A model generated the notes under the pieces. That model saw nothing but the letters and a program-made list of their open reading frames with translations, was not told where the DNA came from and ran no database searches. Positions 32,124 to 34,235 of a DNA stretch of 64,000 bases are shown in pieces. Source of the stretch: Terracidiphilus sp. (GTDB lineage: Bacteria > Acidobacteriota > Terriglobia > Terriglobales > Acidobacteriaceae); the NCBI GenBank assembly GCA_036488735.1, contig DASXHC010000031.1, positions 27,479 through 91,478 on the forward strand. The letters are read 5' to 3'. The position numbers and the translations under genes are program-made. Positions within the stretch are counted from its first letter, which is position 1, and every line of letters starts with the position of its first letter.

Positions 32124-34235
32124 TTAATCGCCAGCTACGGGCTCGGCTTCCTTCTGGGCTGCGGGCTTGGCGGGAGCAATCGAGTCCAGGCGAACCAGGC
32201 CTTCGACCGGCTTCTCGCCCAGCACATGCTCGCGATAGAGCTTGGCCATGCGAGCGTTCTCGGCTTCCTGCTTGACCTTGTCGGCGGTCGTCACGGCGCG
32301 CGCGCGAAGCTTTTCTTCGCGGGCGTTCTTGGCGATGCCCAGGTTGTCCAGCGTGTGATTGGCTTCCGAGTTCACGTGCTCCATGTTAAGAGCCAGGTCG
32401 TGGCCCACATGGGTCATGCCCACCTTTTTGCCGCCCGCAAAGATTTCGTGACGGCCGTGCTCCTCGTACCACTTGGTGAGGGTAGCCGTCATGTGCATTT
32501 TTTCAATGATGTTGCGCCAGCCCACGCCCGTGTTGTAGGCGCAGAAGCTGATCTCGCCTTCCTGCGTGGCGTAAGGAATGATGCACTGCTCGGTCCTGCG
32601 GAAGTCGTAGTTGAACAGATCCTGGAACCACATGCCGGCAATAAACAGGAAGTTCCAGCGGTCCGACCGGCGCTTCTTGATGTCGTCCATCGTGCGGTCG
32701 CCCTTGACGCTGCCGTAATCCTTACCGGTGGCGTTGAAGGTCTTGTCCATCTTCTTCAACATGTCGGTGATCTTGAAGTGGGTCGGCGCCTGGAACGGAT
32801 CGTAGTTGCGCAGCAGCGCCAATCCGAATCCGAGCACGGACAGAAACTTGCCGCGCGCCGCGTCATTCACCTTGGCCAGATCCTTGGCCACGATGTTCAT
32901 GTTCAGGAACGCGGTCACCGGCGCCGCTTCCTTGGTTTCCTTGTCGATCATCAGGGCCATGCCGATGCCGCAGTTGGGATGGCATCCGCACGACAGCTGA
33001 CCCCACTCGGCGGTCGGTCCATGAATCAGATCGGCCCAGTCCGAGAAAGTGCTCATAAAGCTGATCGGGAACCAGTCGCGCTCCGGCTCGCCCAGGCCAA
33101 CCTGTTTCTTCACATCGTGCGCCATGTGCGAAAGCGTGTAGCGCTGCGCGATGCGGCGCTCGTCGGAGATGTCCTCGTCGCGGCCCGTAAAGCTGACCGG
33201 CTGGAAGCTCAGGAAGCTGATCTTCTTGGGATTGTCGAGGGCGAACTCGATGATGCGGCCCACTTGCTCGTTGTTGATGCCGTTGATGATGGTCGTCACC
33301 GGGACGATATCCACGCCGGCCTCGTGCAGATTGTTGATCGCCTGCAGCTTCACGTCGAACAGGTTGCCGACCTTGCGGTGCGAATTGGCCGCATTGCCGA
33401 TGCCGTCGAACTGAAGGTACACATAGCGGAGGCCCGCTTCCGCCGCGGCGCGGCAGAGTTCCTTGCTCTTCGCAAATTCAATGCCGTTGGAGGCAGCCTG
33501 CACGCTGTTGTAGCCCACCTTGCGGCTGTAAGCTACCGCATCCAGGAAGTACGGCGACAGCGTCGGCTCGCCGCCGGAGAACTGCACGCTCATCTGGCGC
33601 CGGGGCTTGATCGTGATGGCGTTGTCCAGCATGGTCTTGATCTCGTCCCACGTCAGTTCGTGGACGAAGCCCACCTGGTTGGCATCCATGAAGCACGGGT
33701 CGCACATCATGTTGCAGCGGTTCGTCAGGTCGATCGTCAACACCGAGCCGCGTCCGTGGGTCACTGTGGACGTGCCATGGTTGTGCAGCTTCTCGTCGCC
33801 CTTGCCGTGGGCGCGAATGTCGCGGCCCGGGAAGCTCTCTTCCAGATGCTTGAAGAACTTGGTGTCGATCGACATTACGTCTTCAAAGTGCCCGTGCTTG
33901 GGGCAATCCTTCACCATCAGGATTTGCCCGTCGCGCTCGATGATCTGCGCCTTGATCTCGCCCACCTTCTCATTCAGAAGGACTTCGTGCGGAAGTTTGC
34001 CGTCCAGAATCTGCTTGCGGATCTCCGGGACGCACTTGGGGCAAAGCGAATCGGTGGTGCGCGGCCACCCTAACGGCGGCTTCTCTTTCTCGTAGCTCTT
34101 CAGCAGCGGCTTATCGCTCCACTTGGGCGTAAAACCGGGGTTGGGGCTGATGCGGTTGAGTCTCTCGTAGACCGCCCACGCGCCCTTGGCCGCGTAAACG
34201 GCTGCTTTCTCGGCATACTTGATCGCTTTGGACAT
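32124..34235 (-). CDS. large radical SAM enzyme, architecture like archaeal tetraether lipid synthase (Tes / GDGT-MAS family)
   Basis: 703 aa. Features in order:
- N-terminal Cys pairs CPKC...(about 40 aa)...CPKHGH
- radical SAM motif TNRCNMMCDPC (CX3CX2C) followed by FSGGEPT
- YLQFDG
- FQPVSFTGR
- extra Cys motif CGCHPNCG
- C-terminal CIIPYATQEGEISFCAYN
The radical SAM call is firm. The Tes-family call rests on my memory of that family. Confidence 0.8.
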   Translation of the reverse strand: MSKAIKYAEKAAVYAAKGAWAVYERLNRISPNPGFTPKWSDKPLLKSYEKEKPPLGWPRTTDSLCPKCVPEIRKQILDGKLPHEVLLNEKVGEIKAQIIERDGQILMVKDCPKHGHFEDVMSIDTKFFKHLEESFPGRDIRAHGKGDEKLHNHGTSTVTHGRGSVLTIDLTNRCNMMCDPCFMDANQVGFVHELTWDEIKTMLDNAITIKPRRQMSVQFSGGEPTLSPYFLDAVAYSRKVGYNSVQAASNGIEFAKSKELCRAAAEAGLRYVYLQFDGIGNAANSHRKVGNLFDVKLQAINNLHEAGVDIVPVTTIINGINNEQVGRIIEFALDNPKKISFLSFQPVSFTGRDEDISDERRIAQRYTLSHMAHDVKKQVGLGEPERDWFPISFMSTFSDWADLIHGPTAEWGQLSCGCHPNCGIGMALMIDKETKEAAPVTAFLNMNIVAKDLAKVNDAARGKFLSVLGFGLALLRNYDPFQAPTHFKITDMLKKMDKTFNATGKDYGSVKGDRTMDDIKKRRSDRWNFLFIAGMWFQDLFNYDFRRTEQCIIPYATQEGEISFCAYNTGVGWRNIIEKMHMTATLTKWYEEHGRHEIFAGGKKVGMTHVGHDLALNMEHVNSEANHTLDNLGIAKNAREEKLRARAVTTADKVKQEAENARMAKLYREHVLGEKPVEGLVRLDSIAPAKPAAQKEAEPVAGD

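Follow-up and report, generated by a model that had tools for sequence, protein, structure and literature searches.

Branched glycerol dialkyl glycerol tetraethers, abbreviated brGDGTs, rank among the most used terrestrial palaeothermometers and pH proxies. The gene family studied here is the leading candidate for making their membrane-spanning core in Acidobacteria, a phylum from which Mss, the one coupling enzyme demonstrated in bacteria, is reported to be missing: Mss does the coupling in Thermotogae and Clostridia, and no mss gene was found in Acidobacteria (Sahonero-Canavesi 2022). In Archaea, the tetraether synthase family (Tes, or GDGT-MAS) includes MJ0619, a radical SAM (S-adenosylmethionine) protein whose pterin-methylase activity was not corroborated and which was reassigned as GDGT-MAS; it binds ester-linked bacterial phospholipids and makes both macrocyclic and tetraether products (Lloyd 2022). 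Here we analyse a Tes-like gene encoding 703 amino acids (aa) in a 64,000-nucleotide stretch of contig DASXHC010000031.1 from Terracidiphilus sp. (the whole stretch is called the window throughout).

Bacterial homologues of Tes were proposed as makers of brGDGTs, iso-branched tails being noted to end like phytanyl tails, and were listed in Edaphobacter aggregans (one homologue, 32 %, 4e-61), Koribacter (42 %) and Solibacter (40 %) (Zeng 2022). In Solibacter usitatus, two were described, Acid_5929 (545 aa, 40.2 % identity) and Acid_2410 (714 aa, 30.1 % identity to MA_1486, E 4e-62) (Halamka 2022). S. usitatus is a proven brGDGT producer, and E. aggregans also produces brGDGTs. The idea that such homologues make brGDGTs or iso-diabolic acid is thus not new. 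The first-pass annotation of the locus described it as a proposal without biochemical demonstration, and rightly so: it was published in 2022 in both of these papers, and a search of the literature through 2026 found neither biochemical proof nor any functional test of acidobacterial homologues, which papers still call unconfirmed. The window adds one more orthologue of this family, not proof of function. By analogy, its enzyme most likely couples two iso-C15 chains tail-to-tail, giving the iso-diabolic-acid skeleton of membrane-spanning lipids and brGDGTs, a reading to which we assign a probability of about 0.6. What is new is that the protein belongs to a distinct clade, without the N-terminal cluster and below the Tes threshold, that surveys of homologues lump three kinds of protein together, and that its gene is preceded by a conserved, gene-specific, operator-like array.

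A Tes-fold protein without the N-terminal cluster

The gene and the segments of its product are located as follows.

32124..34235, minus strand: Tes-like radical SAM gene (703 aa) of a Cys-less acidobacterial clade (class B, defined below); open reading frame (ORF), family matches, orthologues 64-94 % identical
34065..34235, minus strand: N-terminal extension, aa 1-57, clade-specific, with a moderately amphipathic helix at aa 2-29; not in canonical Tes by alignment
33870..34064, minus strand: rubredoxin-like Cys3His zinc-ribbon domain (C65, C68, C111, H114); Pfam PF23545, E 4e-13
33741..33818, minus strand: Cys-free segment, aa 140-165, with four His, replacing the [Fe4S4]N motif CPxxCGxCxxH of canonical Tes
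33156..33740, minus strand: radical SAM core, aa 166-360; Pfam PF04055, E 4e-19
32481..33155, minus strand: C-terminal auxiliary-cluster and lipid-pocket domain, aa 361-585, with predicted [Fe4S4]C ligands C422, C551 and C565 and labile M535
32127..32480, minus strand: C-terminal extension, aa 586-703, clade-specific, with a conserved WYEEHGRHEIFAGG block and a long charged helix at aa 638-671 (AlphaFold2, AF2, model); not in canonical Tes

As judged from sequence and from a predicted structure, the protein is a true homologue of Tes/GDGT-MAS, by far its nearest characterised family and the one to which it had been assigned on first pass. It matched the NCBIfam Tes model NF045702 at E 1e-93 (314.4 bits) and PDB entry 7TOL at E 1.4e-59 over residues 93-590, and it is 30.3 % identical to MJ0619. 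With the AF2 model (predicted local distance difference test, pLDDT, 83; predicted template modelling score, pTM, 0.85), Foldseek returned 7TOM/7TOL at the top (E 1e-33, template modelling score, TM, 0.85-0.86 normalised to the target). These were the only full-length structural matches, and the overall fold, including the lipid-pocket domain, agrees with GDGT-MAS; the next match, MoaA, covered the radical-SAM core only. Profile, sequence and structure searches therefore gave no better homologue in another radical-SAM subfamily: the TrsS model NF045646 reached 208 bits against a cutoff of 490, over model positions 13-295 of 441, and its match ended at residue 379. Nevertheless, on sequence grounds the protein is not a canonical Tes, since it scores 314 bits where the curated cutoff is 450, belongs to a separate clade with 100 % bootstrap and is without the N-terminal auxiliary [4Fe-4S] cluster. 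The original interpretation is right on the family and, overall, partly supported.

Ligands were mapped by alignment onto MJ0619, using the residue numbering of the GDGT-MAS structure paper, checked on the sequence. The ORF itself was present as annotated, with an ATG start codon, and all the named motifs were located: CPKC (C65-C68), CPKHGH (C111-H116), CNMMCDPC (C174-C181), FQPVSFTGR (344-352), CGCHPNCG (416-423) and CIIPYATQEGEISFCAYN (551-568), the last of which had been described as C-terminal although 135 more residues follow position 568. The radical-SAM cluster site C174-X3-C178-X2-C181 (MJ0619 C98/C102/C105) is invariant in the alignment with canonical Tes, and the nonapeptide of the SAM loop is identical (Q345/S348/R352 for Q268/S271/R275). 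C422, C551, C565 and M535 align with MJ0619 C338, C456, C470 and M439 and are invariant or nearly so in both classes of homologue. The extra CGCHPNCG motif is present, but only its C422 is a conserved cluster ligand: a sub-branch of about 650 aa keeps the C422 equivalent alone, so C416 and C418 are not essential ligands. Similarly, both N-terminal Cys pairs exist, yet together they make a Cys3His rubredoxin-type site and not a double Cys pair. This site (C65/C68/C111/H114, MJ0619 C9/C12/C33/H36) is retained, with its spacing enlarged by a clade-specific insertion of roughly 22 aa in the rubredoxin knuckle.

In contrast, the [Fe4S4]N site is not retained. MJ0619 C73/C77/C80/H83 align to K149/H153/S156/T159, and no Cys occurs between C111 and C174 of the window protein. 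The Cys-free segment aa 140-165, which is conserved and has H143 and H153 invariant, is the sole internal stretch predicted to be disordered (aa 143-151, pLDDT <50 in the AF2 model). The [Fe4S4]N motif was present in every canonical representative examined, and no CX3CX2C was seen in the replacing segment among the clade members surveyed. The clade is thus predicted to carry two [4Fe-4S] clusters and one mononuclear Fe, as against three clusters and one. The absence of this surface-exposed cluster implies an electron path different from that of GDGT-MAS; speculatively, the loss may be an adaptation to aerobic hosts.

The segments specific to the clade (N-terminal extension, knuckle insertion and C-terminal extension) are all under purifying selection. 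The ratio of nonsynonymous to synonymous substitution rates (dN/dS) is 0.04-0.12 for the N-terminal extension, whose helix aa 2-29 has a pLDDT of 86-94 and a hydrophobic moment of 0.48. For aa 586-672 it is 0.09-0.17 against Acidobacteriaceae orthologues and 0.23-0.42 against those of Granulicella and Bryobacterales. No transmembrane segment was found in the window protein.

The gene as a whole is real and under strong purifying selection, with dN/dS of 0.04-0.10 (synonymous divergence, dS, about 0.7-1.3) against orthologues in Terracidiphilus-type metagenome-assembled genomes (MAGs) and Acidipila, and 0.095-0.23 against those of more distant genera. Its GC content at third codon positions (GC3, 0.845) is the top value among the predicted ORFs of the window. 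The loss of one cluster site and the clearly degenerate relatives P0137, P0143 and P0155 could suggest that an archaeal tes gene was acquired horizontally and that the ORF is what is left of it, decaying or without function. This is extremely improbable and is effectively refuted by the selection analysis; moreover, all other ligands are intact, identity stays at 64-94 % across three acidobacterial orders, and the promoter region, ribosome-binding site and terminator (see below) are conserved.

A chromosomal clade of Acidobacteria below the Tes cutoff

Among 1.84 billion cluster representatives searched, 598 clusters matched at E <= 1e-30, and their full-length representatives are of two kinds. 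In class A, CPxxCGxCxxH immediately precedes the radical-SAM motif, and scores on the Tes model are 474-638 bits; class B is without CPxxCGxCxxH and scores 204-414 bits. In a neighbour-joining distance tree (517 columns, midpoint-rooted, limited sampling), bootstrap support was 100/100 for the class A/class B split and again 100/100 for the window clade plus P0121. Within class B, the window protein belongs to a compact core clade that is chromosomal, its members being about 650-715 aa long and 64-94 % identical. This clade spans Terriglobales, Bryobacterales and Vicinamibacterales, nearly all member names being Acidobacteriota, and occurs in at least 595 species genomes, including those of Acidipila rosea, Granulicella aggregans and Tunturiibacter psychrotolerans. 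The nearest relatives come from Terracidiphilus sp. MAGs (90-94 % protein identity), which makes the window part of the chromosome of a Terracidiphilus-like bacterium in the Acidobacteriaceae. A strict pattern test of all clade signatures (absence of any cluster motif upstream of the radical-SAM site, together with the Met ligand, the pair of C-terminal Cys and HxxCG) was passed by 213 of 238 full-length members; the listed exceptions were pattern misses or a single stray Cys, never a cluster motif.

Two observations concern the edges of this distribution. The window protein is 72-75 % identical over about 700 aa to P0336, P0346 and P0378 from Vicinamibacterales, that is, across acidobacterial classes; as a sequence comparison, such unusually high identity would imply very strong constraint or transfer within the phylum. 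Another member, P0089 (82 % identical), is labelled 'Candidatus Bathyarchaeia archaeon' by NCBI and lies on a 12-kb contig that most likely is acidobacterial and was mis-binned into an archaeal MAG.

Class B also contains paralogues borne on integrative and conjugative elements (ICEs). P0137 (Terriglobus roseus WP_014786616.1; L083/L084, 8001-9875) is flanked by genes for a TrwC relaxase, a TraG/TrwB coupling protein and two integrases, and P0155/P0274 (P0274 at L085, 8001-9779) are found in similar elements. Taken together, these integrative conjugative or mobilisable elements carry TrwC relaxase, TraG/TrwB, NikA-like and tyrosine integrase genes. P0137 and P0155/P0274 no longer have all of the [Fe4S4]C ligands, and P0143 has lost the radical-SAM motif. 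The T. roseus protein was considered as distribution evidence and set aside, being an ICE-borne paralogue and not an orthologue. With such ICE-borne and degenerate proteins in class B, acidobacterial 'Tes homologue' hits are heterogeneous.

These sister branches, with lost catalytic motifs or on conjugative elements, also bear on whether the clade might now act on something other than lipids (for example a cofactor, peptide or other metabolite), its likeness to Tes reflecting ancestry only. The score under the Tes cutoff, the separate clade, the changed cofactor complement and the want of a lipid gene context all fit this view, as do the many members named '7,8-dihydro-6-hydroxymethylpterin dimethyltransferase' by the Joint Genome Institute, a legacy name that also stands in the Pfam domain. 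That name, however, goes back to a pterin-methylase assignment of MJ0619 that proved irreproducible before the protein was reassigned. The entire C-terminal lipid-pocket and cluster domain is kept, with high model confidence and a TM of 0.85, and the TrsS model scores lower and covers the N-terminal two thirds only. We therefore consider a non-lipid role quite unlikely.

Proposed role in membrane-spanning lipid synthesis

We infer substrate, product and mechanism of the enzyme as follows. A soluble or peripheral protein of the Tes/GDGT-MAS fold would join the omega-methyl carbons of two iso-C15 glycerolipid chains, giving a C30 iso-diabolic-acid skeleton, as found in membrane-spanning lipids and in the hydrocarbon core of brGDGTs. 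The C174/C178/C181 cluster would first cleave SAM, and the resulting 5'-deoxyadenosyl radical would take a hydrogen from an omega-methyl group. Next, the C-terminal [4Fe-4S] cluster (C422, C551, C565) would hold the substrate radical in a C-S adduct, M535 swinging off the cluster. Finally, a second SAM-derived radical, on the second chain, would attack the parked carbon and form the C-C bond. In this scheme the acidobacterial lineage would work without the surface-exposed [Fe4S4]N and with its extra N- and C-terminal segments, and the gene would be transcribed on its own, between a conserved triple-repeat operator with its promoter and a strong terminal hairpin.

Several lines of evidence support tail-to-tail coupling. 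Homology and predicted fold point to Tes/GDGT-MAS, as set out above, and the brGDGT producers S. usitatus and E. aggregans have homologues of this length and identity class. The catalytic set is conserved residue for residue, including the [Fe4S4]C site where the C-S intermediate of GDGT-MAS forms. The substrate is plausible in that GDGT-MAS itself binds ester-linked bacterial phospholipids and iso-branched tails resemble phytanyl ones at their ends (Zeng 2022). Low dN/dS and the high GC3 point the same way, and so does the distribution of the clade: its orders, Terriglobales, Bryobacterales and Vicinamibacterales, are subdivisions 1, 3 and 6, which are among those reported to make iso-diabolic acid (Sahonero-Canavesi 2022). 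In Occallatibacter, Terracidiphilus and Telmatobacter, the closest cultured clade, iso-diabolic acid amounts to 27-49 % of total fatty acids, so their genomes must encode an abundant coupling enzyme. With Mss reported absent, this need would, by analogy, be filled by a protein of the present kind.

A number of points weigh against this reading. Coupling by members of this clade rests on analogy with GDGT-MAS, and the radical-SAM chemistry would have to run in largely aerobic hosts. The score of 314.4 bits lies under the equivalog cutoff of 450, the [Fe4S4]N site that defines GDGT-MAS is missing, no lipid-gene neighbourhood is seen in the window or in 80 related loci, and, as degenerate paralogues show, the same scaffold can diverge towards other roles. 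A published survey also recovered Tes homologues in only 3/14 iso-diabolic-acid-producing acidobacteria (E <= 1e-50, >=30 % identity; Sahonero-Canavesi 2022). This low count is plausibly explained by the identity cutoff, since class B sits on the 30 % threshold (30.3 % to MJ0619 for the window protein). By length and identity, Acid_5929 of S. usitatus falls in with class A and Acid_2410 with the class B of the window; S. usitatus thus has a homologue of the window type, but no detectable free iso-diabolic acid.

This last organism is among the points in favour of a different lipid enzyme, one that acts by radical chemistry on lipid tails without being the general iso-diabolic acid synthase. 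It would serve an ether-only step towards brGDGTs or branched glycerol trialkyl glycerol tetraethers (brGTGTs), intramolecular macrocycles or another tail modification, another enzyme providing bulk iso-diabolic acid. S. usitatus makes brGDGTs and brGTGTs and holds class A and class B together, suggesting division of labour; GDGT-MAS yields macrocyclic as well as tetraether products, and the published survey ties Tes homologues poorly to iso-diabolic acid producers. On the other hand, E. aggregans is rich in iso-diabolic acid and is reported to have only the homologue of the roughly 32 % type, the clade runs throughout iso-diabolic-acid-rich groups in which ethers are minor, and the residues for C-C coupling are fully kept. 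Such a restricted role is, in our view, unlikely, and coupling of iso-C15 chains to the iso-diabolic-acid skeleton remains the preferred function. More tentatively, and with odds rather short of even, the clade of about 650-715 aa might be a streamlined, oxygen-tolerant Tes derivative with membrane- or partner-binding extensions, serving as the iso-diabolic-acid and brGDGT-core synthase of aerobic soil Acidobacteria under the control of a factor binding the CCRTTC array described next.

Transcription unit and upstream repeat array

The elements flanking the gene are given below; relatives were compared over 80 related loci for flanking genes and in-phase repeats, and over 1.51 Mb in total for the search for strict triples.

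32067..32099, no strand assigned: perfect 15-bp GC-rich hairpin with a 3-nt loop, between convergent genes; sequence, fold energy, and position kept in relatives
34249..34254, minus strand: ribosome-binding site AAGGAG, 13 nt before the ATG; AAGGAG or GAGGAG kept in Terracidiphilus-type relatives
34327..34355, minus strand: promoter-like pair TTGGGT-17 nt-TACCCT in conserved alignment columns, beginning 12 nt after the third repeat core
34368..34413, minus strand: three direct repeats CCRTTC(G/A) at 20-21 bp spacing in the leader alignment; putative transcription-factor site

The gene had been proposed to be monocistronic, between a perfect 15-bp bidirectional hairpin and an upstream region of 260 nt, and this arrangement is supported. 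The downstream gene is convergent, the upstream neighbour is not constant among relatives, and the upstream gap (34236-34496) measures 261 nt. The hairpin begins 24 nt past the stop codon and folds at -41.3 and -35.4 kcal/mol on the two strands (z = -6.6 and -7.3); the value of -41.3 kcal/mol was matched by 0/200 shuffles. It is followed by no T-run in the window, and no canonical terminator was called beside the gene. Nevertheless, a strong GC-rich hairpin (median -35 kcal/mol) follows the stop codon in 77 related loci, with differing sequences and in many cases a subsequent T-run, and on the strength of this conservation the hairpin is probably a transcription terminator.

Upstream, the promoter-like pair reads TTGGAT...TACTCT in the leader alignment of relatives. 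It falls under the threshold of a sigma-70 consensus scan, which called no promoter next to the gene, and is proposed as a putative promoter from conservation only. Rfam gave no match at E <= 1 in 31900-34700, where a riboswitch or known RNA in the leader was sought. The CCRTTC repeats form the sole pair or triple array of the window (random expectation 0.3 pairs and 0.0 triples). Strict triples occur 17 times in the 1.51 Mb of related loci, and all 17 lie within 400 nt upstream of an orthologue (L001, L002, L004-L011, L016, L043, L046, L047, L050, L059, L076). At least two in-phase repeats precede 29/80 orthologues, compared with 5/390 control regions, and degenerate copies extend to Bryobacterales. 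This newly described array is probably a gene-specific transcription-factor operator, as far as sequence conservation can tell.

Genomic neighbourhood

The rest of the 64 kb consists of ordinary housekeeping and carbohydrate genes, including those for Asd, aspartokinase, DapB, DnaB, GcvP, a TldD/PmbA pair, RlpA, LarC/LarE and several glycoside hydrolases. No ether-lipid, Mss, Grs or Gms gene came to light when about 50 window ORFs were annotated with Pfam and NCBIfam. A lipid operon was considered and rejected: when flanking ORFs of the 80 loci were clustered without bias, only housekeeping and envelope genes emerged (the TldD/PmbA pair, RlpA, MutY, peptidases and a secreted 309-aa protein), and the flanks of deeper relatives were likewise uninformative on lipid context.

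Neither Pfam nor NCBIfam gave a match for the secreted protein (37205-38134, minus strand, about 309 aa), in which an HQDPxYxRMP motif is conserved. It is the most recurrent same-strand upstream neighbour (29/80 loci, median gap about 400 bp), and its gene is often duplicated, with tandem copies in L018, L024, L025, L033, L043, L052 and L053. In the window, a Kelch-repeat surface-protein gene (34497-36917) sits between it and the Tes-like gene. On the other side lie two tandem genes for PmbA/TldD-family metallopeptidases (25876-30683, plus strand), a pair whose synteny with the Tes-like gene extends to 12-13 related loci; the first of these ORF calls (1051 aa) looks too long at its 5' end. Farther away, LarC (nickel insertion, PF01969) and LarE (TIGR00268, 318 bits) are encoded side by side at 54414-56789 (minus strand) as parts of nickel-pincer cofactor biosynthesis, near a DUF362 protein and a polyferredoxin (50127-53447).

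Branched-chain 2-oxoacid dehydrogenase complexes are a source of primers for iso-branched fatty acids. In the sister lineage of 62 % identity (P0121), an E1alpha/E1beta/E2 cluster for such a complex (L081, 1-3356) lies 6.6-10 kb upstream of the Tes-like gene, a closeness that may be coincidence.

Implications and comparison with known systems

Altogether, the term 'bacterial Tes homologues' covers three things, namely canonical Tes, a chromosomal clade without the N-terminal cluster, and degenerate paralogues on mobile elements, and homologue surveys conflate these kinds of protein. The chromosomal clade sits right at the identity and score thresholds of such surveys, which may explain the poor correlation between genotype and phenotype and, if true, would change how metagenomes are screened for brGDGT producers. 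Likewise, the CCRTTC array and its factor, if real, would offer a molecular handle on how the environment tunes the lipids of this palaeoclimate proxy.

Mss of Thermotoga maritima and Thermoanaerobacter ethanolicus is also a radical-SAM enzyme and couples tails into diabolic or iso-diabolic acids, as shown in E. coli. It is only remotely related to Tes and is confined to anaerobes. TrsS has the rubredoxin and radical-SAM N-terminal two thirds in common with the window protein, but the latter scores higher as Tes and keeps the Tes C-terminal domain. The ICE-borne paralogues (P0137; P0155/P0274) belong to the same Cys-less class B lineage at 39-41 % identity; relaxase, coupling-protein and integrase genes adjoin them, part of their [Fe4S4]C ligands is lost, and they are not orthologues.

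With Tes/GDGT-MAS (MJ0619, 7TOL/7TOM; Methanosarcina acetivorans MA_1486), the window protein shares the four-domain fold (TM 0.85), the Cys3His site, CX3CX2C, FQPVSFTGR, the C-terminal [4Fe-4S] ligands with the labile Met, and the lack of a transmembrane segment. It differs in its identity of about 30 %, in falling under the NCBIfam cutoff, in lacking CPxxCGxCxxH, and in its additional N-terminal (roughly 57 aa), knuckle (22 aa) and C-terminal (118 aa) segments. Unlike that of archaeal Tes, its host is bacterial, with lipids made of iso-branched acyl or alkyl chains on glycerol-3-phosphate. Among published proteins, S. usitatus Acid_2410 and the E. aggregans homologue are of the same length and identity class, come from the same phylum and have likewise been proposed to act in brGDGT synthesis; judged by length and percentage identity, they are probably orthologues. 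The 2022 papers treat all homologues alike and do not separate this Cys-less clade from canonical members such as Acid_5929. Within the clade, identity between the window protein and its Bryobacterales orthologues is 75-79 %.

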